Positions 5,417 through 46,918 of a stretch of 57,879 nt of DNA are shown in pieces. The notes beneath the pieces were generated by a model that saw only the letters and a program-made list of their open reading frames with translations, made no database searches and was not told where the DNA came from. The stretch is from positions 1-57,879 of the IMG/VR virus record IMGVR_UViG_3300046011_002458; one strand, 5' to 3'. The DNA comes from a virus. Taxonomy: Duplodnaviria > Caudoviricetes. Position numbers and translations under genes: made by a program. Positions within the stretch are counted from its first letter, which is position 1. Each line of letters opens with the position of its first letter.

Positions 5417-5443
5417 AAGAAGGGGGCCTCGGCCCCCTTTCTT
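5417..5443. terminator. bidirectional intrinsic terminator
   Basis: AAGAAGGGGGCC-TC-GGCCCCCTTTCTT between convergent genes. Confidence 0.85.
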
Positions 5444-8400
5444 ATTTCGGCACCACTCGCAAGTACTCGCGGTTCATGTCGGTCGAGAGCTTGTCACGCT
5501 CCACCTGAAGCTGCTTGCGCTGCAGCTTCTTCTCCGCGTCGGTCATGTCCTTGTCTTTGATGATCTCGATCTCGCGCTTGCGGATCATCGTCGACTGCTT
5601 CTGGTAGATCTCCTGCATCCCAGCCAGACGCATCAGGCGCTCTTCCTTGTCCTTGAGCTCAGGGTCTAGGCCCAGCTTCTGCTGCGCCTTCACCTCGTCG
5701 GACAGGGCCTTGACCTCACGCATGCGATCGCCGGCGGCCTTGATGTTGGCCCCCTCGTCGACTTCGCCGTAGAACTTGTTCAAGAACGGGATCTTGTTGG
5801 CCTTCAGGTCATTGCCGTCACCAGTCATCGCCACGACCGCCGTGCCAACCTGCTCGACGAAGGTGCCCAGGCCGCCCGTGGTGGCGCTGATCAGGGTCTG
5901 GATGGTGCCAGGTGCCACCGAGGTCTCCACGCCCATGATCTCGCCAGCTTTGGCCTCGTTGCCACCGCCCAGCTCGTTCAGTGCCTTGGCGATCTTGGCC
6001 GACACGGAGTCCTGCTGGCTGGTGAACATGCGCTCAGAGTCTGGGCGCTTATCGAACGGCGACTTCTGCGGAGACGATGGGGTGCCGAAGGTGCCGCGCT
6101 CAGTGATGATCTGGACCGGCAGGTCCACCAGGGTGGGCATGGCCGCCAATAGCACCTGGACGCCATCAGAAACGTCCACAGCGCCACCAAACGGGTTGAT
6201 TGAGCCCAGGACAGTGGACGTCATGTGCAAGGCCGCCTTGGTGGGTGTCATGCCACGCTTGGGGTCTTTCGCGTTGCGCAGGACGTCGGCCATCACGTAG
6301 CCCGCGTTGGGGAACATATTGAAGCCGTACTGCACAGGGATCGTCACGTAACGGCCGCGCTTGCCCACGCGATCGATGCCGCCTGCCAGGGCGTCGCCCG
6401 GTGGCAGCATGATCACGATGTTGCGCTCCTTCACGTAGCTCGGGATCTTGTCCCAGTAGGCTTCGCCGTCGTCGTCTTCGCCGCCGGCCGAGGCACCGTA
6501 CAGCGCCAGCATCATGCCGACACCAGTCACGCCGGCCATGGACGCCTGCACCGCTGGGCTCTTGAGCACCTTGAAGAGCTGGGCATTGCCCTGCACTGCG
6601 GCGTTGAAGAACAGGTACAGGTTGTTCAGTGCGCCGCCCCACTCGCCCTTGCGGTTGAAGTTGGTGGTGCCGTCCTTGGCCAGGATCGCAGCCTTTGCTG
6701 GGCTGTTGCCTTGCTCGCGCGAGGCTTGGTACAGCGCAAACCGGGTGGCGTTCTCTGAGGCCGAGCCCATGAACTCGAGCACGCGCAACGTGAGCTTGGC
6801 CAGCTTGAACGGGGGCAGCGACTTGACCGCTTCCCACGGGTTGCGTGCGGCCGCGCCAGCGAGCAGCAGCTCGTTGCGCAGGTCCTGGTTGATGTCGTCC
6901 AGCGAGCGCATGAAGAAGCCACCCGTGATGCCGCCGGCAGAGCGGAACTCTGCGAAGCGGGCATCCATCTGCGGGTTGCCAAACAATTTGTTGCTGGTGC
7001 CGGACACGCCGGCCTCTCGCCGGGCCGAGGCCATGAAGGCCTTGGGGTAGGAGGCCAGGTAGGTGGCCAACCCCTTGGGGCCAAGCTCAGCCAAAGCCGA
7101 GGCAGTGCCGGACCACAGCGCATCGCGAGGGATGTTGATCGCAGCGAATGCCGGGTTGTACTTTGTGAGCACAGCCCGCATCCAGTTGTTCCACCAGCCA
7201 GTCATGGCCAGGGTGGCGCGCTCGAGGCCGCTGGTCTCGTCCTTCCAGGCTTGGCGCAGTGCGCGTGTCAGCTCTTTGTCAGCGAACTTGATGTAGACCT
7301 GCTGGCCGCCCACCTTCACGCCGATCGTGTCCTCGCCCTTCTCAATGGACTTGGTGTACTGCACGGTGCCCTGGGCCTTGTTGAAGGCAGGCTTGCTGCG
7401 CTCGACATCCACACCCCACAGGTCTGGGTCTGGGTTCGACAGCACAAAGTCCAGCAGGACCTTGGCCACGTCATTCTTTTCGACGCGGCCAATCACGCGC
7501 TCGTAGTCGCGGATCACGTTTTCGATCAGGTCGCCGGCCTTGGACTTGCGGCCCATGGCGCGAACCGTCTCAGCACCGCGCACGTTGACGCCACGGCCAA
7601 CGCCTGGGCGTGCGACACCGGTATCGGCGTCGACGTTCTCGAAGCCACGCAGTGGGATGTAGTTGTCGTAAGCACCCTCGAGCGCCGTGAACTCGTCCGG
7701 CGTGATCAGGCCTTCGCTGAGCATGACCTGGCGCGTGGCCGAGGTGATGCCCATCAGGGCCTGGTGCAACTCCTCGAACTTCGCGGTGTCGCCGGCCAGG
7801 TCAACCATCTGCAAGATGTTGTCGGCCTCGTCGTTGGTCATGCCAGAGCCACCGTCAGGCATGCGCTTGTTGATGCTGGCGATGTAGGCGTTGCGCTCTT
7901 TGGCGTGCTTGGCGTAGCTGTACATGGACAGCTCGTCCATGTCGATGCCGTACTCAGCCGCCTTGTCGAGCATCGGCTTGACGATGTCGTTCTTGAAGTC
8001 GTCGATCGCTGCCTGGATGCGGCCAGGCATCAGGGTGTTGGCGTCGTAGAAGTTTTGCGCTTCGCCGACTGTGCCGCCCTTGGCCTTGACGGCCTCGATC
8101 ACGCGCTTCATGCGAAGCGCGTCGTCCTGCAGTTTGATGCGTGCGGCGTCGACGTTGCTGGTGGCGTCGACGTCGAAGTTGGAGCCGATCAGTTTTTGGC
8201 GGCGGTTGCTTCGGACTACGGCGTTTCCTTCTTCGACAGATCCGCCCCGCCCTTGAAGGCCTCCTCGACCCCCTTGCACATCTTCTTGAACTCGAGGTCC
8301 AGCTTCAGCTCTTCCTCCTTGGTCAGCGTAACCTTTGATGGTCGAGCGGTAGACTTGCTCGCTGATTCTTCCGGCCTTGAACTCTTGTTCGGTCGCATCT

Positions 8401-11400
8401 TGTAACCTCTCTTTCAATCCTGATTTTATCACGCTTGTGATATTTGCAAGCGGCACGATTTGAGCGTTGCCCGCCCCCTTTGAGTTGTCGATTGCAAACA
8501 GTCGGAAGCGGGGGTTGTCGCCAAACTCGTCCTGCAATTTGCGCACAGCCTCGCTTGAGCCTGCGTGGCCCTTGGTCAGGGCGTCGATGGTGACGGTCCG
8601 GCCCTTGCTCATCGCGCGGGTCAGCACGCCATTGCGCAGCGCTTCGACCGGCTCGCGGTAGATGTAGGCGATCAGCACGCGGTTGCCAGAATCGAGCGCC
8701 ATCTGCACGTTGCGGCGGGCCTTGTCGTAGCTCGAGAGCGTGCCATCCAAAATGGTGTGCGCCTTGTCCAGCTTTGACTTCAGCAATTCCTGTGCGCTCG
8801 ACTTGCCTGCGCCGCCACCGCCGGCCATGAATGCCACGGTGCCCTGCGGCTGGGTCTCGAGTCGAGACTCGAACATGCGCTGGGTCATGTCGCTTGCGGC
8901 CTCATGCACCTCGGGTGCGCGGCTGCGGTTCTGACGGTACTCGGGCGACAGCTCGCGCACCAGGTCGGTATCGAGCAAGCGGCCACCGTCGGAGCCCTTG
9001 AGGCCCGAGTACTCGGCCAAGGCACCGTCGAAGTCCTCGTCGATGCGAGCCTGCAGCGCAGCACCGATGCTGCGATTGCTGCGGCGGATGTCGGGATTGG
9101 TTGCGTCGAACGCGCCTTGAGCATGCTTTGGATTCAGGAGCAGTGCGCCCTCGTCGCCAAGGTCGGCCAGGATCAGCCAGCCGTCGACGGAATACTTCTT
9201 GATGTCCGAGCGATCGCCGTACTCCATGGCCTGCTCTACGGTGCGCGTCACCCAGATCGCGTCGGATGCCGGGATTGAAGCAAGGTCAACGCTCAGCTTG
9301 CCGGCGGATTCGCTGGCCAGCTCGCCGATGTCTTTATTGCCCAGTTCCTCGCTTTCGTACCGAACCACATCGGCCACCGTTGCATTTTTTGGTGGGTTGT
9401 AGTTCAGGGCTCGATAGCCATCACCGCGCCATGTGCGGTCTGTGCTTCTGCGGATGTCTGGGCGGTTGCTTGCCATGACGCGGCCAAACTGGAACGACGA
9501 GCCTGCATCGGCCAGTGCCTGGTCCGCGACTTCGGCCTCGCTTGCTTTGACGCGGGCCTCGCCAAACTCAAGACGGAACGATGGGGCCACCTCGGCCAGC
9601 GCTGGGCGGGCCTTGATGATGCTGACCATCTCGTTGCCCTCGGGCCGGCGCACCAGCTCGTCGCCTGCAGTGCGCGTGCGGTTGACGGCGACTGCGCGCT
9701 CGATCTTGCGCGGCACGATCGTCTGGCTAGAGGTTGTGCCTTGGTACTTGACCGGGACGTCGGAGTTGAGAACGACGGCCGTGCCTTGCTCGCGGTTGAC
9801 GTAACCACGGAAGCCGGCATCCAGGATGGCCGACTCGAACTCGTTGGGGGTTGCGGGGAAGGTGCGAGACCCGGCTGCCGGGTCGTACAGGTTGCTCAGG
9901 TCTGCGTTGTAGACGTGGCCACCGAGACCGAGCTCAGGCTGGGGGATGCCGCCGGCGACAGGCAGGTAGAAGTAGACGCGGCGCTTGATGCGGGCGTCAA
10001 CGCTTGGCTGGGCCAGGCGTGATTGCTCAGCGCCCTTGATGCCCGAACCGAAGCTGACGCCAGACAGGACACTCAGTCCCCCTTGCTTTCCGTAGTGGAC
10101 TGCCCCTGCAACCTTGATTGCATCGCCTTGATCGCCCCCAGCGCTGGATCTTCCGGCAGGTTCTGCAGGTCGGGCAGCGCGGTTGCTGAATTGGATTTTT
10201 CCTGCGTCGCCCCAGTCGTACCGCTCGCTGAAGTCGTCGAAGACTCGCTGGACCCGGGGCGCGAGATAAGCTCTGGCCCAGTCAAGAACATCGGATCTTC
10301 CTTCGGCACTGGCCCTCGCAACGTAATCTTGCCCATTTTGATTTTCCTTCCAATTGTTGGTCATCATGTCGCCGCTGGACGCAAACCACTGCGCGTCAGC
10401 ATCCGGCAACACAGATTCAGCCACACGCAGAATGTCCGCGTGCAGCTTTTCATTTGTGATGATACCAAAATTCACAAGCCTTATACCGCTTGGGGAGCTG
10501 ATAAAGGCGAATTGATCCTGCCAGCCCTCATGGCCATTGTCAGCCATCCACTGGCCGACAGCCGCCTCGAGGTCCGCCACTTCGCGGGGGTTGAGTGGGC
10601 GGCCAACCTTGATGTCCAGGCCATTGGCGTCGCGCTTCGTGCTTGAGTAGAACGGGCGGTGCCAGCCCACGCCCTCTTGGCGGGCCACCAGGCCAGCCAC
10701 GGCAGCGTAGACGTTGAGCGCCTTGGCCTGGGCGGGGTCGACGTTGGTCTTGCCGGCATCGCCCTTTGCTGGGGCCATGGCCACACCGAGCTGCGTGCTT
10801 GGCGAGATCTCGCCTTGCCACACGCCGGGGGCCAGGATGTCGTTGTCGACAAGCAAGCCCAACCGCATGGCCAACAGGTCATTGCCCTGCTCATCAAGGA
10901 ATGCCCGCTGCACAGCCTGCTGGAACTCCACCTGCTGCGCATAAGGCGCGTCGTGGATGCCGGGCAGAACACCCGTTGTGCGGCCAGGGCGAGCCTCAAA
11001 GGAGACCTGCCCGATGTGGCGCTTGAGGCCATCGCCAAAGTCGAACTTGGCCTGCTGTGTGTCGTCCTTTGTGACGTCGTGCGCGAAGGAATACTTGAGC
11101 CAGTTGTCGCGGTGCTTTTGCTTGTCGATGATGACCCGTTCCTTGCCCTTGCCGCCCTTGCCCGGCACGAACTTGATCCAGCCCTTCTTTTCGCTGGTGC
11201 GCTCGGTTTCTTTCTTAACGCCCTTGTTCTCCATGCGGGCCTTCATGGCCACCCAGATCGCGGCCTGCACCTGCTGCGGCTCCCAGCCCAGCTCTTGCGC
11301 CAAGCGGTTGGTCTCGTTCTCCATGAAAGAGTACTGCGTCGCAGTGGGCGCATCGGTCTCGTACTGACCGGCGCGCATCATCCACATGTCGATCGTCGCG

Positions 11401-14400
11401 CCCTGCTTGCCGGCGGTCGATGGGTCGATCTCGCGCAGCAGGTTGAAGAAGAAGTTGCCGGTCTTCTCGCCGGACCAGAATGCGTCGACGTCGTCGAGTG
11501 CGTTCTTGGCTTTTTTGTCCATGTCGCCGGTCTTCACGCTGATCGGCTGGCCAGCCTTGTACTGAGCCCACGCACGCAGCGCGAACGTGGAGTTGGCGTC
11601 GACCTTGGCTTGTGGCGAATAGATGGCCAGCAAGGCCACGAACTTGCGCGCTTCGTTGACGTCGCCACCCACCATCTTCAGCACTTCGCGGCTGCTGTTC
11701 TCGTACCAGTAGCGGCCTGGCGCACCCTCGTCCGCGAGCTGGCGCAGGATCTTGCGCAAGGTCGGGATCTTGCCGGGCGTGTTGAACTTCTCAGGCGCAC
11801 CCAGGTACTTGCCGTCTTTCATCGGCAGCTTCTCGGTGACCTGGCCGCCGCGACTGTAGGCGATGTTGCGACCCTCGAGCGCGGCGCGCACACGAGGCGC
11901 TGCGGCGTTGGTGAACACCACGCCTTCCTTGGTGACGCGGCCCACTGTGCCCTCGGGCATGGCCGCGCGGATGGCGTCGCTGTCGCCGAACACGGTGAGC
12001 GATCCATCTTTGGCGGTGGCCACCTCGTAGTCGCCGAACTTCTCGGTCTTCGCGCGGCGGGCCATCATCACGTCGCCAGTCACAGCGGCGTCGGGCGTCA
12101 GGCCCTGCTCCTGCATGGCCTCGGCGTAGGCAGTGGTCAACAGGTCTCGAGCCTTGGCCACGTCTGTGATGTACGTGTTGACGAACTCGTCGCCGTACTC
12201 GCTGCGAGCACCAGTCAGGATTTGGTTGAGCTTGGACAGGATGGCCTTGGCCACCTCGGCAAACTCGGCGTTGCCCATCTTTGCGCGCAACTCTTCCCAG
12301 AAGTCGGCTCGCTTGCTGATCGCCTGAACCATGAATGCGGGGATCTCTTCGTCGAGCTGAGCGTCGGTGTAGTCGAACACCTGCTTGAACTCGTTCGTCT
12401 TGTCCTCACGGAACAACTGGCGCAGTGCCGTGTTGAGGGTCGCACGCTTGTCGTCTGACAGGCCGTGGTAGGCCTCGTGCATCGTGACGAACAAAGGCGC
12501 GTCAACGGTGTCGTCGGCGATCATGATGTGCTTGCCGCCAGCTCGATTGATCAGGCCATTGGGCATCGACATCTCGGGACCGGACACGCGCGTGATCACA
12601 GTCAACGTCTTGCCAAGCAAGCGGGCAACAGTGCTGGCCAGCTTCTGGCCGTCGTTCATTTGACTGACCGACACTGGCGCAACGTCGAGGCCTGTCTCGG
12701 CCTGCAGCGCAGCGCGCACCGACTTGATTGCCCCAATCGGCGCGGGCAGCGCCAGCTTCAGTCCGGCAGGGACAGCACCTTGCACATTGGTCGGTGCTGC
12801 TGTGCCGACGGCTGCGGTTGCTCCGGCTGCTGGTGCTTCTTGTCCTTGCGCTTGGCCTTGGATGGCTTGAGGGGCTTGAGTGCCACTGACGTTCTCCTGA
12901 GTTTCGGAATAACCGGCCAAGCGGAACTTGCCGTTGGCCATCGACTCGACCTTCCAGCCGAGATCCGGGAACATGCGCTGACGACCTGGCAGCGCCTGCT
13001 GTGCATCGCCTTGCGTCACGTAGCCGTCGCCCTTGCGGCCGAACCACTGCTCGGCCGGCTGGACTACAGCATTGTTATTTTCTTGGCTCGCGATCGAGGC
13101 CTCGGTGCGTGCCAGCAGATCCTGATCAGTGGCCCGATCGAACGGGCGATTCAGGCCGGCAGTCGGTTGCCCGGCTGCGCCTGGAACAGAGACAGCCTGT
13201 GGAACATTGGTCCCAGCAAGTCCGGCAACTCCACCTCGCTGCCCGGTGGCGTCATTGACATCAAGTCCTGGAATGTCCAGGCCTCCGCCACGCTGATCGC
13301 TTGCGAGCTCACCGCTTCCTGCAGCTGCCAATGGAGGAATGCTTGTTGCGCTGACATCGGTTGTCTCCGGTGCGGTTGGAACGACAATGTCCACCAGGCC
13401 AGCCTGCTGTGTGGGCGAACCTGCTGGGGTGAAATTGATGGGTGCGGCTGGGCCGGTGTCGCCTTGCTGACGCGACGTCAGGCGCGGGTCGATCAGTGTG
13501 GGGTCGTAGTTGTTGACGTCGAAGAGCGCCACAGCTTGGCGCTCTGCTGCGATGCCAGGCGTCTGCGCTGCGCGGGCCTCTTGGAACTGGCTTGCAGCTC
13601 CGGCAGCACTGAATGGGGCTGAGGTTACGAGCGCCGTGGCCATGGCCTCGGGCACACCCTCTGTCAGCTTTTGGTTGGGGTCGACCGTGCGCGAGATGAC
13701 GTTGCCGCCAAACTGCGTGCCGCCCTCCTCGAACTGCTCGCCGACCAGGTCCTTGGCCAGCATCTTTCCAGCGCCGGCAAACGTCAGAGCTTCGGCTGTG
13801 GCCTTTCCCAGGCCCCTGGAGGCGATAGCGGCCTCGGCACCCATAAACCCCAGCAGACCCAGCGGCGCGGTGATCAGCGCGGCCATACGGGCCTTCGTGG
13901 TGGCAATCTCTTCGATCGCGTCCTTGCTGGACTTGCCTTCGGCGGTCAGCTTCTGGTAGTCGGGGTTCTGTTGCCACACGCTCAGCGGCGTTTGCTTCGG
14001 GTCGGTCAGTTTTTCGTACACGCCACCGGCTGCGTCGCCGCCAGCCATGACCATGGACGCACCCACACCGCCGGCGGTCGTGCCCGCGACGCGCGCGCCT
14101 GCCTGGATGGCTCCGCCGCTGATCGCTTCAGCCAACGCCACAGTGGGGCTGGCACGGCCAGCCAGGCCAACGGAGCCAGCGGTCGCTGCGCCAACAAAGC
14201 GGGAGGCTCCCACGACACCCAGGAAGTTGGGCACCTGCTTCACGGCCTCAGACAGGCCAAGCGCTGGGCTGGTGACAAGCTGCACAACGGTGGCGGCGTA
14301 CTTGTCGAGGAACCCGTCTTCGTTCAGCACGCGCTCGCGCAGCTGTTCGCGCTGAGCCTTCAGCACGCCGGACTCTTGAGCCTGCAATTCCTTCTGTGTG

Positions 14401-15083
14401 GCGCTCAGCGATGCCGCGATGTCGCTGCTTGGGGCGATGATGTTGATCGGCAGCTGCACCAGGCCAACCGCGCCTTGGCTCAGGTTGGACAGTGTGTCGG
14501 CCGCCCACTCGCCGGCGCTGCGGAACTCCTCGGCCTTGGCATCGCGAGCTGCGCGGATGTTCTCTGGCTTTTTGGCCGCATCGGCCAGGTCGGCAAAGCT
14601 CTTGTCGCCCCGGGCGTCCATGGCCTTGACGACCTTGTTGACCGTCGGGTCCTTGCTGACCATCTGGCCACGGCTGCTGCGCACCGAGTCGGCTGCAGAT
14701 TGCGCCTGCGAACTGATCGGGCCTGCGCCGTAGGACAGGCGTCGATCGATGTCGGCCTGCTTTTCCTCGGCCGTGGGGACGTAGTCCTCCATGACGCTCT
14801 TGAACTTAGGCCGCAGGGACTCGCCCACGCGCTGAATGATGCCGGGCTGAGGTGGTGCCTTGTAGCGCGCGGCCAGTCGGGCGGTCTCGTCGCCGGTGTC
14901 GATCACTGGCGCGGCCGCCGGGGCCGGAGCCTCGCCGCCGGACAGGAAGCCGATCACCTCCGATGCGCTGTAGCCAGACTGCAACGCCCCGCTCAGATCA
15001 AATTTATTCTCTGTGGCCAGGTAATCCGCGATCTCTTCGTCGGAATACCCGGAGCTGCGGGCTGCGTTGATGTCGAACTTCAT
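5442..15083 (-). CDS. 3213-aa large polyvalent internal virion/ejection protein (zincin, HhH-glycosylase-like, two ART-like, zeta-toxin-like kinase, LPD38-like C-terminus)
   Basis: HEAYH..EE; YWYE..SPQ..KT.NF..TIDMWMMR..QAAIW; HYG..YFY; YR..WVT..A..YG; MAGGGGAGKS..DGT; LYLFFNAAVQG..YWDKIPSYVKERN; last gene of virion operon. Confidence 0.9.
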   Translation of the reverse strand: MKFDINAARSSGYSDEEIADYLATENKFDLSGALQSGYSASEVIGFLSGGEAPAPAAAPVIDTGDETARLAARYKAPPQPGIIQRVGESLRPKFKSVMEDYVPTAEEKQADIDRRLSYGAGPISSQAQSAADSVRSSRGQMVSKDPTVNKVVKAMDARGDKSFADLADAAKKPENIRAARDAKAEEFRSAGEWAADTLSNLSQGAVGLVQLPINIIAPSSDIAASLSATQKELQAQESGVLKAQREQLRERVLNEDGFLDKYAATVVQLVTSPALGLSEAVKQVPNFLGVVGASRFVGAATAGSVGLAGRASPTVALAEAISGGAIQAGARVAGTTAGGVGASMVMAGGDAAGGVYEKLTDPKQTPLSVWQQNPDYQKLTAEGKSSKDAIEEIATTKARMAALITAPLGLLGFMGAEAAIASRGLGKATAEALTFAGAGKMLAKDLVGEQFEEGGTQFGGNVISRTVDPNQKLTEGVPEAMATALVTSAPFSAAGAASQFQEARAAQTPGIAAERQAVALFDVNNYDPTLIDPRLTSRQQGDTGPAAPINFTPAGSPTQQAGLVDIVVPTAPETTDVSATSIPPLAAAGSGELASDQRGGGLDIPGLDVNDATGQRGGVAGLAGTNVPQAVSVPGAAGQPTAGLNRPFDRATDQDLLARTEASIASQENNNAVVQPAEQWFGRKGDGYVTQGDAQQALPGRQRMFPDLGWKVESMANGKFRLAGYSETQENVSGTQAPQAIQGQAQGQEAPAAGATAAVGTAAPTNVQGAVPAGLKLALPAPIGAIKSVRAALQAETGLDVAPVSVSQMNDGQKLASTVARLLGKTLTVITRVSGPEMSMPNGLINRAGGKHIMIADDTVDAPLFVTMHEAYHGLSDDKRATLNTALRQLFREDKTNEFKQVFDYTDAQLDEEIPAFMVQAISKRADFWEELRAKMGNAEFAEVAKAILSKLNQILTGARSEYGDEFVNTYITDVAKARDLLTTAYAEAMQEQGLTPDAAVTGDVMMARRAKTEKFGDYEVATAKDGSLTVFGDSDAIRAAMPEGTVGRVTKEGVVFTNAAAPRVRAALEGRNIAYSRGGQVTEKLPMKDGKYLGAPEKFNTPGKIPTLRKILRQLADEGAPGRYWYENSSREVLKMVGGDVNEARKFVALLAIYSPQAKVDANSTFALRAWAQYKAGQPISVKTGDMDKKAKNALDDVDAFWSGEKTGNFFFNLLREIDPSTAGKQGATIDMWMMRAGQYETDAPTATQYSFMENETNRLAQELGWEPQQVQAAIWVAMKARMENKGVKKETERTSEKKGWIKFVPGKGGKGKERVIIDKQKHRDNWLKYSFAHDVTKDDTQQAKFDFGDGLKRHIGQVSFEARPGRTTGVLPGIHDAPYAQQVEFQQAVQRAFLDEQGNDLLAMRLGLLVDNDILAPGVWQGEISPSTQLGVAMAPAKGDAGKTNVDPAQAKALNVYAAVAGLVARQEGVGWHRPFYSSTKRDANGLDIKVGRPLNPREVADLEAAVGQWMADNGHEGWQDQFAFISSPSGIRLVNFGIITNEKLHADILRVAESVLPDADAQWFASSGDMMTNNWKENQNGQDYVARASAEGRSDVLDWARAYLAPRVQRVFDDFSERYDWGDAGKIQFSNRAARPAEPAGRSSAGGDQGDAIKVAGAVHYGKQGGLSVLSGVSFGSGIKGAEQSRLAQPSVDARIKRRVYFYLPVAGGIPQPELGLGGHVYNADLSNLYDPAAGSRTFPATPNEFESAILDAGFRGYVNREQGTAVVLNSDVPVKYQGTTSSQTIVPRKIERAVAVNRTRTAGDELVRRPEGNEMVSIIKARPALAEVAPSFRLEFGEARVKASEAEVADQALADAGSSFQFGRVMASNRPDIRRSTDRTWRGDGYRALNYNPPKNATVADVVRYESEELGNKDIGELASESAGKLSVDLASIPASDAIWVTRTVEQAMEYGDRSDIKKYSVDGWLILADLGDEGALLLNPKHAQGAFDATNPDIRRSNRSIGAALQARIDEDFDGALAEYSGLKGSDGGRLLDTDLVRELSPEYRQNRSRAPEVHEAASDMTQRMFESRLETQPQGTVAFMAGGGGAGKSSAQELLKSKLDKAHTILDGTLSSYDKARRNVQMALDSGNRVLIAYIYREPVEALRNGVLTRAMSKGRTVTIDALTKGHAGSSEAVRKLQDEFGDNPRFRLFAIDNSKGAGNAQIVPLANITSVIKSGLKERLQDATEQEFKAGRISEQVYRSTIKGYADQGGRAEAGPRVQEDVQGGRGGLQGRGGSVEEGNAVVRSNRRQKLIGSNFDVDATSNVDAARIKLQDDALRMKRVIEAVKAKGGTVGEAQNFYDANTLMPGRIQAAIDDFKNDIVKPMLDKAAEYGIDMDELSMYSYAKHAKERNAYIASINKRMPDGGSGMTNDEADNILQMVDLAGDTAKFEELHQALMGITSATRQVMLSEGLITPDEFTALEGAYDNYIPLRGFENVDADTGVARPGVGRGVNVRGAETVRAMGRKSKAGDLIENVIRDYERVIGRVEKNDVAKVLLDFVLSNPDPDLWGVDVERSKPAFNKAQGTVQYTKSIEKGEDTIGVKVGGQQVYIKFADKELTRALRQAWKDETSGLERATLAMTGWWNNWMRAVLTKYNPAFAAINIPRDALWSGTASALAELGPKGLATYLASYPKAFMASARREAGVSGTSNKLFGNPQMDARFAEFRSAGGITGGFFMRSLDDINQDLRNELLLAGAAARNPWEAVKSLPPFKLAKLTLRVLEFMGSASENATRFALYQASREQGNSPAKAAILAKDGTTNFNRKGEWGGALNNLYLFFNAAVQGNAQLFKVLKSPAVQASMAGVTGVGMMLALYGASAGGEDDDGEAYWDKIPSYVKERNIVIMLPPGDALAGGIDRVGKRGRYVTIPVQYGFNMFPNAGYVMADVLRNAKDPKRGMTPTKAALHMTSTVLGSINPFGGAVDVSDGVQVLLAAMPTLVDLPVQIITERGTFGTPSSPQKSPFDKRPDSERMFTSQQDSVSAKIAKALNELGGGNEAKAGEIMGVETSVAPGTIQTLISATTGGLGTFVEQVGTAVVAMTGDGNDLKANKIPFLNKFYGEVDEGANIKAAGDRMREVKALSDEVKAQQKLGLDPELKDKEERLMRLAGMQEIYQKQSTMIRKREIEIIKDKDMTDAEKKLQRKQLQVERDKLSTDMNREYLRVVPK
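8216..8398 (-). CDS. nested 60-aa ORF (+1 frame) directly after the zeta-like kinase domain
   Basis: GAGGT-6 nt-ATG; GC3-rich codons in nested frame; internal operator/-10 upstream. Confidence 0.7.
   Translation of the reverse strand: MRPNKSSRPEESASKSTARPSKVTLTKEEELKLDLEFKKMCKGVEEAFKGGADLSKKETP
8423..8449 (-). promoter_or_regulatory. intragenic operator palindrome TATCACGCTTGTGATA (8427-8442) with extended -10 TGaTAAAAT
   Basis: 14/16 match to the perfect palindrome at 51125; TTGCAA 15 nt upstream of the -10. Confidence 0.65.
10073..10336 (-). CDS. nested 87-aa ORF (+1 frame), MGKITLRGPVPKEDPMF...
   Basis: GAAGGA-8 nt-ATG in an AT-rich patch; motif-like sites at 10451-10485. Confidence 0.6.
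   Translation of the reverse strand: MGKITLRGPVPKEDPMFLTGPELISRPGSSESSTTSASGTTGATQEKSNSATALPDLQNLPEDPALGAIKAMQSRLQGQSTTESKGD
12758..12886 (-). CDS. nested 42-aa basic ORF (+1 frame), MALKPLKPSKAKRKDKKH...
   Basis: AGGAG-7 nt-GTG; GC3-rich codons in nested frame. Confidence 0.55.
   Translation of the reverse strand: MALKPLKPSKAKRKDKKHQQPEQPQPSAQQHRPMCKVLSLPD
13151..13357 (-). CDS. nested 68-aa ORF (+1 frame), MSAQQAFLHWQLQEAVSSQAISVAEAW...
   Basis: GGAG-7 nt-ATG; globular-looking sequence; GC3-rich codons. Confidence 0.65.
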   Translation of the reverse strand: MSAQQAFLHWQLQEAVSSQAISVAEAWTFQDLMSMTPPGSEVELPDLLGPMFHRLSLFQAQPGNRLPA

Positions 15084-19710: not shown

Positions 19711-20213
19711 AGCTTGCCTTTGAGTTGTTGGATTTCGCCGCCTTTATCCTTGGAGCCTTGCGAGCTGCCACGGTGAAAGTTCAGCACGGTGCCGCACATG
19801 GTGATGAGCGAGCCAAGCGCCATGTAGACCAGCTCTTTGTTCTGCTCCGGCACGCCTTTGATGAAGGCAAACCACGCCAAGAAGATGGTGGAGGCCACGA
19901 TGCCGATGTCCAGCGCGTAAGCGGTGTTCTTGGCCAACCAAGAGGCGCTGGCAGAGTCCTGGATCTTGGTGTTCATTTCGCGCGCGCTGGCCGTGTTGGC
20001 GTTGTGCAACTCGAACTGCTTCACGTCGATCTCGGCCAGCTTCTGCGCAGCCTCTGGGTCCGCCTGGATGGCAGCAGCGACGGCCTCGACCGTGTCCTCG
20101 ACACCCAGCTTCTCAGCGATGGCGCGAACGGCCATGCCACCCATTGGGCCGGCAACCGCCGTGGCCAGCATGGGGGCTACCGTCTTTAAAAGTCCTGCAA
20201 GTACGTCGTTCAT
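19707..20213 (-). CDS. holin-like membrane protein
   Basis: Two C-terminal TM segments ending F.GSS.GSKDK; adjacent to endolysin. Confidence 0.7.
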   Translation of the reverse strand: MNDVLAGLLKTVAPMLATAVAGPMGGMAVRAIAEKLGVEDTVEAVAAAIQADPEAAQKLAEIDVKQFELHNANTASAREMNTKIQDSASASWLAKNTAYALDIGIVASTIFLAWFAFIKGVPEQNKELVYMALGSLITMCGTVLNFHRGSSQGSKDKGGEIQQLKGKL

Positions 20214-20830
20214 CAGTTACCCCTTTTGGTTAGCATGGCGCTGGCAATCTCCAGCATGAATTTGATTTGCTCCAGGCTCTCTGGCTGCTGCGCCCAGCCC
20301 ACTGTGATCTGCCCAACAAAACGGTGGTTGTCAGGCGGCACACTGATGCGGCAGGTGAAGGTCACACCCTTCTCGATGTACCAAAGCCCAACCTCGGATT
20401 GCGCGTAGCGGTACTCGGAGCACGGAATGTCGTTGGTCATCAGCTTGATGACGTCGCCGTTGTTCGCTGAGTTCTGACTGAACAGGCCGACGTCGATGTC
20501 CTCAATGCTCTTGTCGCGCCCGTCTTTTGTGTAGGCCTTGTAGAGAACCCGGCTGTTGAATAGTGGGTTGACTTTGAAGACTGCCACCACGGTGGCTCCG
20601 GTCTTCTTAAACAGCATGGCTGCCGTCTCATCTGCCCGGCTGGTGTTGATCTCCGGCAGCTTCTGAGATTCCTTGTAGGCGTCCCGCATGAACTCTTGGT
20701 TCTGCCACAGAAAGTAACCAGCGAAAGCCACAATGCCCATCACCAAAATGGCGAAGAGCTTGAATGGCGAATCGACGTACCCAAGAACTTTGTCCAGCGT
20801 CGAATTGGCGTTAAGTTTTTCATCGGCCAC
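20213..20830 (-). CDS. single-TM protein with GAF-like soluble domain resembling T4 T/T5-type holin
   Basis: N-terminal TM, MLFKKTGATVVAVFKVNP and FVGQITVGW..P patterns. Confidence 0.55.
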   Translation of the reverse strand: MADEKLNANSTLDKVLGYVDSPFKLFAILVMGIVAFAGYFLWQNQEFMRDAYKESQKLPEINTSRADETAAMLFKKTGATVVAVFKVNPLFNSRVLYKAYTKDGRDKSIEDIDVGLFSQNSANNGDVIKLMTNDIPCSEYRYAQSEVGLWYIEKGVTFTCRISVPPDNHRFVGQITVGWAQQPESLEQIKFMLEIASAMLTKRGN

Positions 20831-21314
20831 AGTTAACCGCCTTGCAATAAATCAGCAGCTCGATGCCGCCCCACACCAACACGCCGACAGTGACGCTCCC
20901 AAGGATGATGGCAGTCCAAAGTTCGAGGTCTTCGCGGCGCTTCTTGCGCGCCTGCTTGGCCGCATCGGAAGCGCGCCTGCGCTGCGCCTTGTCGTCTTCG
21001 TCCATCTGCTTGCGACGGTTGACGATCTTTTCCCACACGTCCATGTTGTTCGGGAAGAACAGGCCCTTGACCTGCTCCTCGAACTGCCTGGCACTTTCGA
21101 TGGCGAGCTCCAGCTCCACGGCCTTGCCCATGTTGGAGCCCTTGAAGCCGCCCTTGTTGACTTCCTCGAGCACCTTGACCGCGTCGGCCTTGGCGTCGAA
21201 GTACTTGCCAAGCACAGGGCCAAGACTGCGCACATCATCGACCGTCTTGACGGCCTTCTTGACCAGGTTGACGGCGGTGGTGACCGCAGCAAGCGCGGTG
21301 AATGGATCGATCAT
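20820..21314 (-). CDS. coiled-coil protein with C-terminal TM (lysis cassette)
   Basis: MIDPFTALA..; AAGGAG upstream; C-terminal hydrophobic helix. Confidence 0.75.
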   Translation of the reverse strand: MIDPFTALAAVTTAVNLVKKAVKTVDDVRSLGPVLGKYFDAKADAVKVLEEVNKGGFKGSNMGKAVELELAIESARQFEEQVKGLFFPNNMDVWEKIVNRRKQMDEDDKAQRRRASDAAKQARKKRREDLELWTAIILGSVTVGVLVWGGIELLIYCKAVNCGR

Positions 21315-21412
21315 AGAAGAGCCCTAACAAGAGGTATCGTCTCCTTAACAACGAGCAGCACCACCACCACAAGGGCGACAGCCGCCGCGAGGGAGATGAG
21401 CCAATCTTTCAT
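21311..21412 (-). CDS. 33-aa membrane peptide
   Basis: MKDWLISLAAAVALVVVVLLVVKETIPLVRALL; ATGA overlaps at both ends. Confidence 0.55.
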   Translation of the reverse strand: MKDWLISLAAAVALVVVVLLVVKETIPLVRALL

Positions 21413-21621
21413 TTTGCGAGTAGCTGAGCGAGCAGCATGATGATTGCCCCGAAGCCGGACATCACCGCGACAGCGCTGCCAATCATCAGGGACTCAATGC
21501 GCTTGAGCCGCGCATTGCTTGATCGGAACTGAACTTCAATTCCTTCGTATCGTTGCGCACAAACCGCTTCGTGCGTGTTGAGTTGGGCTTCGACTGCTGA
21601 TACCACTTGCAGCTCCTTCAT
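21409..21621 (-). CDS. XhlA-like small holin/hemolysin-type protein
   Basis: HEAVCAQRYE.I...LKRIE followed by a TM helix. Confidence 0.65.
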   Translation of the reverse strand: MKELQVVSAVEAQLNTHEAVCAQRYEGIEVQFRSSNARLKRIESLMIGSAVAVMSGFGAIIMLLAQLLAK

Positions 21622-21978
21622 TTACTTCAGGTTGGTTAACTTGTAGAGCGTGGACAGGTAAAGGCCCACAATCTCGTCGACGATGTTCTGCATCGCACGC
21701 TCGTCTTTACCGACGGCGGCGTCGCGATTGCTCTCAAGCCAAGCGAGTTGGTCGCGCATGGACTTAATGATGTCGCCAGGAAACTCGTTGTCCAGCAGCG
21801 GGATCTCGATGATCCCCTTGCGGCCCTGGTAGGCCTCGGCCAGGCTGTCGGCAAGATCGACGACGGCCGGGTAGAAGTCGCCGAGCGCCATGTGGTGTGC
21901 GTAGCTCTTCGTGCGCAGGTGCTCGCGGTGTGCGAGCTCGCGCGCTAGGAAGAGGACGGCGATGAATTGACCGATCAT
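21622..21978 (-). CDS. ferritin/Dps-like four-helix protein (DUF5856-like)
   Basis: AH..HL.T.SYA.H.AL..FY......D..AE.YQG; NIVDEI..L...T.YKL. Confidence 0.75.
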   Translation of the reverse strand: MIGQFIAVLFLARELAHREHLRTKSYAHHMALGDFYPAVVDLADSLAEAYQGRKGIIEIPLLDNEFPGDIIKSMRDQLAWLESNRDAAVGKDERAMQNIVDEIVGLYLSTLYKLTNLK

Positions 21979-21994
21979 TGGGTTGACCCCTACA

Positions 21995-22279
21995 TCATTG
22001 TGATGGTTGAGCGGTGCCGAGTGTCGCCTCGTGCTCTGCATTTCGCTGTGCGCCGGACTTCACCCAGCCGCGAGCGAATGCCAGTTCAACGAGCTCGTCT
22101 TTCGTGCTTGGCACGGCGGTGTTTGAGTCGAAGCACTTTTGCATCGCAATTGCCGCGATCTCATCCATGGCCACCCTGCAGCGTTCTTTGGCGGCGTGGT
22201 TGATCCAGTCACCCTGAGAGAGGGCTACATACCCGAGAGCTTTGTCTTCGGCGCTTGTGAGTTGCACTGTGTAGTTCAT
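21995..22279 (-). CDS. small fibre-associated protein, paralog of 23392-23667
   Basis: T..L..AE.KAL..VA.S..DWIN.A..ERCR.A.DEI shared. Confidence 0.8.
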   Translation of the reverse strand: MNYTVQLTSAEDKALGYVALSQGDWINHAAKERCRVAMDEIAAIAMQKCFDSNTAVPSTKDELVELAFARGWVKSGAQRNAEHEATLGTAQPSQ

Positions 22280-22288
22280 GTGAGTTCC

Positions 22289-23329
22289 TTATCCAATCAA
22301 AAAGCCAGAGAATGAGCAGCGACCAAGGTCGAGTGAAAAAGATGTGCTGTTGTTGTTGGCAACGTAAACAGTTACGGAGTCGCTGGCATTGAGCTGAACA
22401 ATTGCAAAACCGGTCGACGATGCGTAGGCCGCCCCATACGCGATTGTCAATTCAGCACCGCTGTATATGACGCCGTTGATAAACAGGTTTGCTTGCGGTC
22501 CACCTGTTCCAGTGGTTGGAGTTATTTTTACCAAGAACAGATATGCCCCAGAGACTGGCGCGGTAAATGTGCTGGAAGAAAATGACGTGACTCGCGACCC
22601 AATAGAGAACACAGAGGCGAAAGGAACCTGCTGATAAACCTGTGCTCCAGACCACGATTGAAAGCCTGAACCGCAGGCCATAAACGCCGTCTGGTAAGGC
22701 ATCCGAACACGGCCAAGCGCGTCTACGATCATGCGCGCCGTAGGCGTGACGTTCGTTCCAATAGCAACAGTGTTATCGGGGTCGGCGTACATCGTGACTC
22801 CGCCGCCGCCAACAAGAACGGCTGATTTCGACCAGACGACGGAAACGCTGCTTGCAAAACCATTTGCACTCGCCGATCTCTGATAGCCACTGGCCAATAC
22901 TGCGGCGGCGCTGTTCTCCTGGTTGAAGATGTTCGCGTAGTTCTGCCCGTTCGGCCACTTGAAGCTAATGTTCTTCGTTGAATCCAAGGTGAAGCTTGGC
23001 GTGGTTGGGACCGCTCCCAACCCCAAGTTGCCGCCGGAGTCGATACGCATGCGCTCTGAGCCACCAGTGCCGTACCAGATATGTTGAATGTTGTTTGAAC
23101 CATCGTTGGTGATCTGGTAGCCGTTTGTTACGCCGGAAATGCCAAACGTATACGCATTACCGTTTTGCCCGGAGGCGGCAACTGCGTAAATAGCGCCCGC
23201 CGTGTTTGACGTTTGATTGACTTGCAGCTTTGCCAGCGTTGGCGAACTCGTCCCCACCCCCACGTTGCCCGTCGTCGGATCGACGAACAAGGACTTCACC
23301 AGGTTCGCAAGTTTTCTTGGAAAGCTCAT
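22289..23329 (-). CDS. short secondary tail fibre/adhesin with C1q-like tip
   Basis: GNVGVGTSSPT, ERMRIDS.G repeats; FTAPVSGAYLF...LNASDSV...FSGFLIG. Confidence 0.8.
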   Translation of the reverse strand: MSFPRKLANLVKSLFVDPTTGNVGVGTSSPTLAKLQVNQTSNTAGAIYAVAASGQNGNAYTFGISGVTNGYQITNDGSNNIQHIWYGTGGSERMRIDSGGNLGLGAVPTTPSFTLDSTKNISFKWPNGQNYANIFNQENSAAAVLASGYQRSASANGFASSVSVVWSKSAVLVGGGGVTMYADPDNTVAIGTNVTPTARMIVDALGRVRMPYQTAFMACGSGFQSWSGAQVYQQVPFASVFSIGSRVTSFSSSTFTAPVSGAYLFLVKITPTTGTGGPQANLFINGVIYSGAELTIAYGAAYASSTGFAIVQLNASDSVTVYVANNNSTSFSLDLGRCSFSGFLIG

Positions 23330-23391
23330 GCTTGTGCTCCTTCAATTGCGTGCGACTGAGAGCACGACTTAGGCATTGTGATAGTCATCGC

Positions 23392-23667
23392 TTAGGCTGC
23401 GGGCTGCTGGCGGGCGGCTTGTTCGGCTTCCATGCGTGCCTGGCGGTCCGCAGCAGATTCGATCTGCGCAGCCATCACGATGTCGTCTTTGCTGCCAGTG
23501 ATTGGCTCGCCGGCATCCAGCTTGCGCTTCACCTCAGCGGCCACGATTTCGTCGATGGCGATGCGGCAGCGCTCATGCACTGCGTTGTTGATCCAGTCCT
23601 CGGGGGACACGGCGACGGATGCCAGGGCTTTGTGCTCGGCGGCGGAGAGAGTGAGTGTGAAGTTCAT
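23392..23667 (-). CDS. small fibre-associated protein, paralog of 21995-22279
   Basis: AAGGA SD; paralogy. Confidence 0.8.
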   Translation of the reverse strand: MNFTLTLSAAEHKALASVAVSPEDWINNAVHERCRIAIDEIVAAEVKRKLDAGEPITGSKDDIVMAAQIESAADRQARMEAEQAARQQPAA

Positions 23668-23680
23668 GATGTTGTCCTTT

Positions 23681-46063: not shown

Positions 46064-46100
46064 AGTTCGCTTTCAAACACCGCTTTGCAAATACGAGGAA

Positions 46101-46159
46101 GACCCGGCGGACTCCGTGAAAGCGGGAAACCGGATAGCGTGGCCGCGCCCCGCCGGGTC
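46101..46159 (-). promoter_or_regulatory. structured leader (10-bp perfect closing stem) upstream of primase
   Basis: GACCCGGCGG...CCGCCGGGTC. Confidence 0.5.
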
Positions 46160-46236
46160 TAAAACTTAACTCTTGTGATATTTTAAGCGCAACGAGATAC
46201 CCCAAAATAGGTGTATCACAAGGCTTGCAATTTACT

Positions 46237-46437
46237 TCACACCCGTGATACTTTTCGTTTCAGGATGTCGGCGGCTGCTTTCAGCCTGCCCTTCGTGACG
46301 TGCTCGATGCGCAATTGCTGCAGGTGCGGAATTGCGCCGCGTTTTTTCCAGTTGCTGAGGGTCGGCTGTGTGACGCCGATGGCGTCTGCTGCCTGGACCT
46401 GGGAGCCGAAGTGTTTGATCAGTTGGTCGAATTTCAT
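46237..46437 (-). CDS. cro: Cro-like repressor
   Basis: IKHFGSQVQAADAIGVTQPTLSNW...IP..Q...I...T.G.LKA; divergent from cI. Confidence 0.88.
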   Translation of the reverse strand: MKFDQLIKHFGSQVQAADAIGVTQPTLSNWKKRGAIPHLQQLRIEHVTKGRLKAAADILKRKVSRV

Positions 46438-46891: not shown

Positions 46892-46918
46892 TACCCGTGA
46901 AGTTTTGCGGGTCTTTGT

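Follow-up and report, generated by a model that had tools for sequence, protein, structure and literature searches.

Phages are known to carry small genes nested within larger ones on the same strand. In lambda, Rz1 lies in the +1 frame wholly inside the larger gene Rz and has its own start, and the two products act together; Rz1 is a single secreted lipoprotein, encoded within a gene of 153 aa. In phiX174, the overprinted genes are E in D, B in A, and K. Overprinting in such small phages is usually explained by compression in tiny genomes. A different coupling is found in polymorphic toxin/immunity cassettes (CDI, Rhs), whose immunity genes lie downstream as cistrons of their own. Overprinted viral genes are among the topics reviewed in PMC8227390 and PMC3494269. 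For epsilon/zeta toxin-antitoxin systems, passages of PMC5923241 describe that epsilon antitoxins block ATP binding and that gonococcal epsilon_1 has an extended form covering the ATP site. In the main text of PMC5512222 (Iyer et al. 2017), LPD38 is given as phage-specific and a zeta-toxin-like kinase as one of the domains of polyvalent proteins; the words 'overlapping' and 'linker' each occur 0 times in this text, and nested genes are not described in it.

The window analysed here, the whole stretch of 57,879 nucleotides from an uncultivated phage, carries a gene for such a polyvalent protein, a member by its giant size, its many domains, LPD38 and a zeta-toxin-like kinase. It is the final gene of the minus-strand late/structural cluster, with endolysin, tail fibre, major head, portal and TerL as neighbours, and matches LPD38, DUF7178 and Zeta_toxin in Pfam and 14770/616 in PHROG. 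The product is a multi-domain protein, presumably delivered with the virion. Its zeta-like domain resembles the Zeta_1 toxin (PDB 6eph_B) with an E-value of 2.5e-17 by profile and of 7.3e-10 over aa 2016-2252 by single sequence, and its Walker-A motif GGGGAGKS shows no variation among 24 sequences.

At four places of this gene (A to D, Table 1) the same DNA would be read twice, frame 0 giving the giant protein and frame +1 a small one, and we have little doubt that all four ORFs are selected coding genes. The stretch would then encode two proteins at once, in many related phages. With Rz/Rz1 it shares nested small +1-frame genes on the same strand with starts of their own. However, we find here four soluble-looking proteins in connectors of a 3213-aa gene, each tied to another module, with neither an N-terminal signal nor a lipobox visible in their sequences, and Rz/Rz1 has no sequence relation to them. 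As in phiX174 and other viral overprinting, one frame of a dual-coding strand dictates the composition of the other, but here, in a genome of 58 kb, the overprinting clusters within a single mosaic gene and recurs from one module to the next. In CDI and Rhs, a toxin module likewise passes on together with its cognate small protein, as a unit, on module exchange; here the frames overlap, and an immunity function is a hypothesis.

Table 1. Features of the giant gene and of its nested genes in the window
Feature	Position	Strand	Basis or remark
Host gene, 3213-aa large polyvalent protein	5442..15083	minus	ORF call
LPD38 domain, host frame	5781..6455	minus	Pfam; given in PMC5512222 (main text) as marker of phage-type polyvalent proteins
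Nested gene D	8216..8398	minus	+1 frame, ATG, 60 aa
Zeta-toxin-like P-loop kinase domain, host frame, aa 2016-2252	8328..9038	minus	Pfam PF06414; PDB 6eph_B
SD of D, GAGGT, 6 nt before ATG	8405..8409	minus	
Nested gene C	10073..10336	minus	+1 frame, ATG, 87 aa
SD of C, GAAGGA, 8 nt before ATG	10345..10350	minus	built by host codons W-K/E/R-E/A
DUF7178 domain, host frame	11238..11729	minus	Pfam
Nested gene B	12758..12886	minus	+1 frame, GTG, 42 aa
Small conserved host-frame domain, aa 645-735, between A (upstream) and B (downstream)	12879..13151	minus	present in 38 loci
SD of B, AGGAG, 7 nt before GTG	12894..12898	minus	
Nested gene A	13151..13357	minus	+1 frame, ATG, 68 aa
SD of A, GGAG, 7 nt before ATG	13365..13368	minus	

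The coordinates, strand and +1 frame given for the four ORFs in the earlier note agree with our ORF calls, and the four SD strings and their spacings are exactly those it named. The giant gene had been described as being without an obvious SD, and no SD core was found upstream of its ATG. The statement that each ORF coincides with a low-complexity linker of the host frame holds wholly for A and B but only partly for C and D: C shares its first third with a conserved host domain, and D overlaps the 3′ end of the kinase coding segment, its first ~23 codons covering the C-terminus of the zeta-like domain. Frame 0 would be a flexible, weakly constrained connector at A and B, and a domain edge plus connector at C and D.

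The length of the four ORFs is not beyond chance. At 62% GC the giant gene contains many long ORFs in its other frames, 21 of at least 35 aa in +1 and 8 in +2; four further +1 ORFs (185, 165, 138 and 96 aa) exceed all nested ones. This fits an explanation by which nothing is encoded: GC-rich DNA would leave these frames open by chance, and their conservation would come from an artefact of low-complexity composition or from a constraint on the DNA or RNA itself. However, these four longer ORFs are not conserved, and control +1 ORFs (>=58 aa) decay in relatives, being open in 0-33% of them with a peptide identity about half of the host's, whereas the nested four conserve start, SD, stop and length.

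For the comparison, 160 metagenomic or viral loci were fetched. The tblastn search proposed earlier found peptide A in 37, B in 37, C in 54 and D in 20 of the 160 loci; at least one nested peptide is present in 77, and each match is an intact ORF. The loci are not near-clonal, with an identity of 33-59% to the window's A peptide. In the 77 loci the +1 peptides are conserved together with their start codons, SD motifs and stops, whereas alignment of the host-frame 'linker' often fails. A, B and the end of C were the only places where +1 matches outnumbered host matches in an unbiased scan with 30-aa windows (at A, 5-18 distinct relatives in the +1 frame and 0-1 in the host frame; at B, 20-21 matches vs 10).

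Instead of the frequent stops and lost signals that would speak against nested genes, the homologues show a +1 frame that stays open with start and SD kept. ATG is retained in 28/28 sequences for A, 33/33 for D and 36/41 for C, and the start of B lies at one site in 27/27, as TTG (20), GTG (4) or ATG (3). A nested ATG demands GAT or AAT in the host frame, rare codons that elsewhere account for 17% of Asp and 20% of Asn. An SD core 4-10 nt upstream is present in 21/28 (A), 26/27 (B), 30/41 (C) and 13/14 (D) distinct members, against a background of 7.0% at 142 other +1-frame start codons; the SD of A is kept although the host-frame residues there vary between subfamilies. The host frame is open in all members as well (28/28, 27/27, 41/41 and 14/14 for A to D), whereas 7-26% would be expected with the nested peptide re-coded at random; both frames are therefore kept by selection.

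The shift of the G/C-ending codon bias into the nested frame, noticed earlier, is real and extreme, seen at these four places only and unmatched elsewhere in the giant gene. Host GC3 is 0.45/0.40/about 0.57/0.43 in A/B/C/D, and 0.82-0.83 (sd 0.05-0.07) in all other windows of the same size, none of which is as low. In A, GC1,2,3 of the nested frame is 0.62/0.45/0.78 vs 0.65/0.46/0.79 gene-wide. C is mixed, as had been said, with a nested GC3 of 0.70 and a host value of about 0.56, and host p3 drops to 0.32-0.33 there. The third base of a nested codon is the first base of a host codon, so the nested preference for G/C-ending codons would put G or C at the first position of host codons; the Gly/Ala/Pro/Gln/Arg-rich composition of the 'linker' would thus be a by-product of the nested gene. 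CAA makes up 82% of the Gln codons in nested regions vs 23% outside. Together with the conservation of start, SD and openness, the GC3 shift supports the core claim of real overprinted genes missed by annotation.

We also compared changes that are synonymous in the host and nonsynonymous in the nested frame (SN) with changes synonymous only in the nested frame (NS). SN rates are 0.32-0.46 in the nested regions vs 0.58-0.75 in 11 control regions, and NS is the higher of the two in A, B and D but the lower in each of the 11 controls. The NS/SN ratio is 1.67 (1.34-2.16) for A, 1.42 (1.16-1.82) for B and 1.61 (1.23-2.25) for D from codon 23 to the end; for C it is 0.83 (0.67-1.06), a range that reaches into the highest control values. 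The case for C rests on suppressed SN, on start and SD and on openness; in its first 33 codons the host-synonymous rate is 0.35 vs 0.58-0.75 in controls. The nested-frame dNN/dNS of 0.67-0.84 is by itself a weak statistic against a biased control range of 0.73-0.95, and that +1 control regions already lie below 1 is a point for nothing being encoded. The reversal to NS>SN, the codon-phase switch and the confident fold of A speak against this, and a nucleic-acid constraint would not spare precisely the nested third positions. An absence of coding is already contradicted, and we give it practically no probability.

As coding genes, A to D would be expressed by internal initiation on the late mRNA, each from its own SD and start codon. 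Alternatively, the +1 peptides could be C-terminal tails made by programmed +1 frameshifting that truncates the giant protein, the SD-like motifs serving as stimulators. Internal SD-like sequences do stimulate frameshifting in prfB and dnaX, and many loci have a +1 frame open some way upstream of A, B and C. However, conservation starts exactly at the start codon, and ATG, GTG and TTG interchange at the start site of B. In three distinct A sequences (L005, L006, L082) a TGA directly precedes the ATG, and a stop at or <=7 codons upstream of the ATG of D is found in 9 of the 10 relatives shown and in the window. An Rfam search for known frameshift elements gave 0 matches, and we regard frameshifting as very improbable. 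With internal initiation, the small proteins would be made in excess, because the giant gene is without an SD and the nested genes have one.

The nested genes are linked to single host modules. A, the small domain (aa 645-735) and B form one module in the order A-domain-B: of the 38 loci with this domain, all 38 have A and 35 have B, and A and B occur together in 34 loci. All 33 host-frame matches spanning host codon 2229, at the zeta end, have the +1 ATG of D (33/33), and the order of C and D varies between loci. Each nested gene is physically joined to one module and travels with it as phages exchange modules. A small protein whose gene is welded to one module and moves with it most likely acts with or on the neighbouring domain.

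D is a basic protein (pI 9.2; 19 distinct peptides, 51-61 aa); its N-terminal third is disordered, a helix follows, and the end, ...LSxxETP, is conserved. Its co-fold with the zeta-like domain scored 0.87, and the best of three controls 0.55, the score that D retained against an unrelated protein. The mark applied was reached by 58/80 solved complexes and 2/110 mismatched pairs, a calibration that is only rough since the co-fold was built from our own alignments. The runs share at least 69% of contacts, with a partner pLDDT of at least 67, and the predicted interface includes residues flanking the Walker-A lysine. In this, the pair resembles epsilon/zeta (PezAT) type II systems: a zeta-toxin-like P-loop kinase with a small, adjacently encoded candidate binder. 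D, however, is nested in +1 at the 3′ end of the kinase segment instead of being a separate upstream cistron, and the putatively toxic kinase belongs to a giant phage protein as one of its domains. No similarity of D to any solved antitoxin or Pfam family was detectable. Epsilon/zeta complexes are already solved, so the co-fold pass may be a memory of 'zeta plus small helical partner'. The zeta chain in the co-fold ended at host aa 2240, with Zeta_1 homology extending to 2252, and the helix of D might fill the place of the truncated terminal zeta helix. We put the chance that D binds the zeta-like domain a little below even. By binding beside the P-loop, D would be an intragenic antidote or chaperone, and one small protein may in this way restrain a toxin-like domain of the giant protein. 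The antidote or chaperone role proposed earlier for the nested products gains from the tight module linkage and from this co-fold, which passed its controls; the support is partial, computational and confined to D.

The other three proteins are of different kinds. A is acidic (pI 4.6) and was found in 37 loci with 28 distinct DNA sequences, every one of 67-68 aa. AF2 confidently predicts a three-helix fold (pLDDT 87.4, pTM 0.69, from 35 sequences), and a profile search gave 164 clusters (50% identity) of ~67-aa proteins, nearly all of 61-72 aa. B is very basic (pI 10.2), with a conserved N-terminus xALKPLKPSKxKRKD, a low-complexity middle and mostly TTG or GTG as start (37 loci, 27 distinct sequences, 24-79 aa). 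C (54 loci, 41 distinct sequences) has the conserved N-terminal motif MGKxTYKGLVPxDDPMFxTGPExFS, followed by a middle rich in S and T and by a C-terminus that varies and is often basic and helical; it is predicted to be mostly disordered, with one helix at 64-81 (AF2 pLDDT 63.9).

Such proteins could also be real and translated but unrelated in function to the host domains, the linkers being free space in a size-limited genome, for instance host-takeover, anti-defence or nucleic-acid-binding peptides. The coding evidence applies equally to this explanation. The highly basic B and the mostly disordered C with its short conserved motif look like peptides binding host targets; for A and D neither sequence nor fold led to a relative of known function, and none of the fold and family comparisons pointed to a known antitoxin. 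The very tight single-module linkage (38/38, 33/33) argues against it, yet physical overlap alone would give that too; the D/zeta co-fold is a further point against it. We consider unrelated functions a minority possibility, and a partner role of all four nested genes about as probable. Overprinted genes including partner function are, as a whole explanation, slightly favoured. A C gene is carried by the Halomonas sp. NO4 prophage. Three C-like copies persist in a Halomonas genome that has just a short fragment of the host frame and no giant gene, which also fits a function independent of the giant gene. Of C, 77 predicted proteins are present in a public protein set, and gene callers predict A- and C-like proteins where the giant ORF is out of view.

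The comparison of the giant gene with its relatives establishes, at the level of sequence, that both frames are selected over four stretches, that the initiation signals of the four nested ORFs (A to D, all in the +1 frame of the host gene) are conserved and that each of these ORFs is inherited with one host module. The giant gene is the final gene of a minus-strand cluster comprising primase, large terminase, portal, major head protein, tail-fibre-like proteins and endolysin. The GC content of the window is ~62% over 57,879 bases; it dips to 0.54-0.58 in three stretches and is ~0.62 elsewhere. Pfam recognizes LPD38, DUF7178 and Zeta_toxin in the giant protein, PHROGs returned families of unknown function only and NCBIfam no match. 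The gene is a single ORF of giant size whose many domains, LPD-type ones included, are unrelated to each other, and it encodes a phage-type 'polyvalent protein' sensu Iyer et al. 2017 (PMC5512222). Its 252 metagenomic homologues are mosaic in domain content. Against GenBank phage records, neither Megablast with the giant gene nor tblastn with peptides A and C gave a match, and the giant-protein query gave just short partial matches; Rfam gave 0 matches, and an initial viral-contig scan with the single giant-protein query found nothing. With an alignment of 20 homologues as query, 80 viral-contig, 80 metagenome and 4 genome loci were fetched as DNA.

Coordinates of the features discussed, in the window or in fetched loci of relatives (L-numbers)
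Feature	Sequence	Coordinates	Strand	Remark
Giant gene (host gene, frame 0)	window	5442-15083	-	3213 aa
Nested ORF A	window	13151..13357	-	+1, 68 aa
Mini-domain (conserved host-frame domain)	window	12879..13151	-	host aa 645-735
Nested ORF B	window	12758..12886	-	+1, 42 aa
HExxH motif MHEAYH	window	12465-12482	-	host aa 868-873
Nested ORF C	window	10073..10336	-	+1, 87 aa
Segment with 0 matches in fetched loci	window	~9084-9443	-	host aa ~1880-2000
Zeta-like domain	window	8328..9038	-	host aa 2016-2252
Nested ORF D	window	8216..8398	-	+1, 60 aa
GC dips	window	20001-24000, 46001-48000, 50001-54000
Long B variants	L007, L044, L047, L082	L007:12348-12575, L044:10848-11075, L047:10884-11111, L082:4286-4522		76-79 aa
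+1 ORF ending in C motif	L045	L045:14106-14558		150 aa; also L046, L065, L070, L106
Extra alternative-frame ORFs (examples)	L019, L038, L041, L040, L048, L049	L019:2522-2692, L038:12807-12977, L041:14265-14435, L040:9081-9308, L048:9219-9410, L049:315-491		codon-phase scan
C-like copy, Halomonas genome (G009)	L171	L171:9766-10146	+
C-like copies, Halomonas genome (G009)	L172	5487-5792 and about 10290	reverse

The earlier note had placed four short ORFs in the +1 frame of the giant gene, each behind its own Shine-Dalgarno (SD) sequence, and had described the giant gene itself as lacking one. Both descriptions hold: the ORFs lie where they were placed, each with the SD string and spacing named for it, and no SD core was found upstream of the giant-gene ATG. 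ORF length was discarded as evidence, as longer +1 and +2 ORFs of the giant gene are unconserved. The gene contains 21 ORFs of at least 35 aa in +1 and 8 in +2, and the four rank 5th, 6th, 8th and 13th by length among the +1 ORFs. Paralogues of the four peptides were not found elsewhere within the window. The proposed shift of the codon bias into the nested frame is borne out beyond chance. Host-frame GC3 is 0.45 in A, 0.40 in B, 0.57 in C and 0.43 in D, against 0.82-0.83 (sd 0.05-0.07) in other windows of the gene; no equal-size window elsewhere in the gene reaches so low a value, and the gene-wide codon-position GC pattern is adopted by the nested frame. CAA accounts for 82% of the Gln codons inside the nested regions vs 23% outside.

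That the nested ORFs are a product of chance or an artefact is poorly supported by their distribution in relatives. In the first 160 loci, tblastn matched A in 37, B in 37, C in 54 and D in 20 cases, with at least one peptide in 77 loci. Every match is an intact ORF (37/37, 37/37, 54/54 and 20/20, respectively), and the frequent +1 stops against which the earlier note had asked that its claim be weighed were not found. Control +1 ORFs of at least 58 aa are open in just 0-33% of the relatives, with a peptide identity about half that of the host. In the printed alignments the +1 peptides are conserved and the host frame at these places is variable low-complexity sequence. Whole-frame tblastn with masked stops was uninformative, since long gapped matches blurred the signal, and it was replaced by an unbiased scan with 30-aa windows taken from each of the three frames. 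Here, +1 matches exceed host matches only at A (5-18 vs 0-1), B (20-21 vs 10) and the end of C (7 vs 4); outside of these, both alternative frames behave alike and their excess over the host is never above a few matches.

Start codons and SD sequences are kept as well. Families guided by the nested peptides were adopted here, because alignments guided by the host frame put A and B in the wrong place within low-complexity sequence and yield falsely low values of start conservation (50% and 43%); distinct sequences were counted after removal of identical DNA. A starts with ATG in 28/28 distinct sequences, all 67-68 aa long, and C in 36 of 41. The 27 distinct sequences of B share a single homologous start site (TTG 20, GTG 4, ATG 3), and the 14 of D, 51-61 aa in length, all begin with ATG. 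By position, a +1 ATG is present in 33/33 host-frame matches covering host codon 2229, with 19 distinct D peptides. A nested ATG demands GAT or AAT in the host frame, which make up only 17% of the Asp and 20% of the Asn codons elsewhere in the gene. An SD core (GGAG, GAGG or AGGA, 4-10 nt upstream of the start) is kept in 21/28 sequences of A, 26/27 of B, 30/41 of C and 13/14 of D, far above the background of 7.0% at the remaining 142 start codons in the +1 frame of the giant gene. The SD of A persists despite subfamily differences in the host residues encoded there. The conservation of both signals that the earlier note predicted for homologues is thus observed.

The same data bear on the idea that the +1 peptides are tails produced by frameshifting, which is poorly supported. 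A programmed ribosomal frameshift requires the +1 frame to be open from the shift site into the conserved peptide, and this is not the case: 3 distinct A sequences have a stop immediately ahead of the ATG, and the start of D is preceded by one, seven codons away at most, in the window itself and in 9 of the 10 relatives listed. The host frame is selected too, being open in every distinct member (A 28/28, B 27/27, C 41/41, D 14/14). When the nested peptide was re-coded at random with synonymous codons, the host frame remained open in only 7-26% of the trials. The giant ORF is therefore not mis-called, and the coding is truly dual.

Selection was assessed per frame, as the earlier note had suggested. 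A host-guided scan showed a collapse of the third-position difference rate at A, C and D. In codon alignments guided by the nested peptides, changes were then classed by their effect in both frames, with 11 control regions for comparison. The rate of host-synonymous/nested-nonsynonymous changes (SN) is 0.32 in A, 0.36 in B, 0.46 in C and 0.45 in D, compared with 0.58-0.75 in the controls, so that it is lowered in all four; the reverse class (NS) has rates of 0.53, 0.51, 0.38 and 0.57, respectively. SN exceeds NS in 11/11 control regions. The NS/SN ratio supports A (1.67, bootstrap 1.34-2.16), B (1.42, 1.16-1.82) and D (1.25, 0.98-1.61; 1.61, 1.23-2.25, from codon 23 to the end). For C the ratio of 0.83 (0.67-1.06) is not separated from the controls, and this ORF is supported by its halved SN (0.35 over the first 33 codons), its start and SD and its openness. 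The nested-frame dNN/dNS of 0.67-0.84, barely under the +1-frame control range of 0.73-0.95, is a weak statistic alone and, being biased below 1 in the +1 control regions, was used only together with the NS/SN contrast.

The nested ORFs are closely tied to domains of the host protein. A lies upstream and B downstream of the mini-domain, which occurs in 38 loci, accompanied by A in 38/38 and B in 35/38. D is present wherever the end of the zeta-like domain, which it overlaps, is present. The order of C and D varies among loci (e.g. L002), and C is absent from some loci that have A, B and D. The nested genes thus travel together with their modules. When giant ORFs of the relatives were scanned for codon phase, A to D were recovered along with further families missing from the window, with 8, 6, 4, 3 and 3 members, among others; all families of at least 3 members are in +1. 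Some low-complexity families among them may be spurious. Two observations concern the host frame. The conserved domain directly downstream of B, which is without a Pfam model, carries an HExxH motif with H869, E870 and H873 invariant in a 20-sequence alignment, and is probably a metallopeptidase-like effector domain. Another segment of the giant protein, which had 0 matches in the fetched loci in the 30-aa scan and has a lower GC3 of 0.62, may represent a module that was acquired recently or evolves fast.

The four peptides match no family in Pfam or PHROGs, apart from one chance-level row (E 0.15). A is acidic (pI 4.6) and is confidently predicted from 35 sequences to form three helices (pLDDT 87.4, pTM 0.69). 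Searches with this model were not informative: the best hits were E 4.6 in the PDB by Foldseek, an unnamed 110-aa protein in BFVD (A8HNW3, E 0.14, TMq 0.76), Z 3.9 in VIA wide, and an unnamed protein at 0.85 in the ESM Atlas. A sequence search of the PDB with A and D returned nothing relevant. The profile of A matched 164 cluster representatives at E <=0.001 among 1.84 billion, 61-72 aa long in nearly all of the 150 listed; Pfam gave nothing relevant for 10 of the 164. Of ten clusters looked up, seven occur solely on contigs <2.2 kb; for two, members are found on 9-39 kb contigs, and for one no contig is recorded. Given these mainly short contigs, most A-like proteins are probably nested gene A itself, called when the giant ORF lies outside the contig. 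B is very basic (pI 10.2). In long variants (76-79 aa) the basic N-terminus is retained and followed by an additional C-terminal part that looks helical (...EQQAQQWVSQWR...LEPSLRQRVLQLL); a similar motif is also seen in L008, L009 and L083, there in +1 ORFs of its own. C, whose profile has 77 matching predicted proteins, is predicted to be mostly disordered (pLDDT 63.9) with a single C-terminal helix. A 150-aa +1 ORF in five loci shares the C-terminal motif of C (DLQNLxEDPALGAI...), and its N-terminal part is unlike that of C and looks globular (MMMNEQRQLKDMY...), so that the predicted nested proteins are themselves mosaic. D is basic and helical in its second half.

D extends from host codon 2229 to 2289 and overlaps the kinase segment at its 3' end. 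The zeta-like domain matches PF06414 (E 2.1e-10, Pfam) and, with a profile, the gonococcal Zeta_1 toxin (6eph_B, E 2.5e-17), the single-sequence match extending over aa 2016-2252; its Walker A is invariant. By these matches it is a zeta-family P-loop kinase, as is the toxin of an epsilon/zeta pair. The antitoxin of such type II systems is homologous to epsilon/PezA and encoded by a separate cistron beside the toxin gene, whereas D has no such homology (Pfam, PHROGs, PDB) and is nested in +1 of the kinase segment; no sequence similarity to solved antitoxins was found among PDB matches up to E 10. Co-folding of the zeta-like domain and D, with our own alignments of 24 and 20 rows, scored 0.87, 0.87 and 0.88 against 0.00, 0.00 and 0.55 for the controls (0.55 being D with an unrelated protein), values to be read with two points in mind: the model may recall solved epsilon/zeta complexes, and the kinase chain ended at aa 2240, 12 residues before the end of the Zeta_1 homology, so that the D helix might stand in for the truncated one. 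The mark applied is reached by 58/80 solved complexes and 2/110 mismatched pairs. The runs share at least 69% of their contacts, with a partner pLDDT of at least 67. In the model, D residues 22-57 contact kinase residues 81-83, 94, 97-109, 133-142 and 192-210 (chain numbering), flanking the Walker-A lysine 95 on either side. Epsilon antitoxins block ATP binding, and the extended epsilon_1 covers the ATP site (PMC5923241). With these caveats, the modelling supports binding of D to the zeta-like domain as a prediction; in the co-fold with a flanking domain that the earlier note had called for, this pair scored above its controls.

We infer that internal initiation on the late mRNA would yield four small proteins, which could be made in excess given that the nested genes have SD sequences and the giant gene has none. 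In the nested frame, the preference for codons ending in G or C would make the host codons start with G or C (host GC1 is 0.79-0.82 in A and B), resulting in connectors rich in Gly, Ala, Pro, Gln and Arg. The small proteins might act on the adjoining domains, and in the producing cell D could mask the zeta-like kinase or chaperone it. A general reading, which we offer tentatively and consider rather unlikely, is that connectors of polyvalent proteins encode in +1 module-specific partner proteins, antidotes or chaperones, that recombine with the effector modules. Such an intragenic toxin-antidote architecture would leave the 'linkers' as an out-of-frame shadow. The main rival of an action on the adjoining domains takes the small proteins as unrelated cargo in free coding space, and one Halomonas genome, where C-like genes stand outside any giant gene, suits this rival at least equally well.

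Embedded +1 genes as such are familiar from Rz/Rz1 and phiX174. To our knowledge, same-strand embedded phage genes are known as isolated cases; here, one gene carries four and its relatives contain further +1 families. In the open-access literature searched, nested genes have not been described for polyvalent proteins, and the main text of the polyvalent-protein paper PMC5512222 has 0 occurrences of 'overlapping' and reports no nested genes. The A family alone amounts to 164 sequence clusters in public data, nearly all unannotated in place. A class of conserved small phage proteins is systematically missed by standard gene calling. In giant mosaic proteins, a 'disordered linker' can be a by-product of another gene's codon usage, and this alters how such regions should be interpreted. 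The arrangement also suggests, in testable form, how a toxic effector domain could be passed on as a single recombination unit with a small protein that possibly controls it. Since the nested start can be removed by a host-silent change, its middle base being the third base of a host Asp or Asn codon, the arrangement would provide a clean natural system for dual-coding constraints.

Three further genomic contexts deserve mention. A 53-kb contig binned as an Aquiluna (actinobacterial) MAG (L162) looks like a phage contig and contains a close relative (83% in the best segment) with A, B, D and a C variant. In the cultured isolate Halomonas sp. NO4, a giant-gene relative with an intact C gene is located on a contig of 300,977 bases (L163), and this strain is a possible experimental system. 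One Halomonas genome harbors three C-like gene copies of 101-126 aa, two of them annotated by NCBI as hypothetical proteins (P0333, P0353). Each overlaps a short host-frame remnant (...NWKE..APRVQRVF..YGW, then stop) with no surrounding giant gene, and a transposase-like ORF is found near the copy in L171. Remnant cassettes are one possible explanation of these copies, an independent two-gene unit is another.
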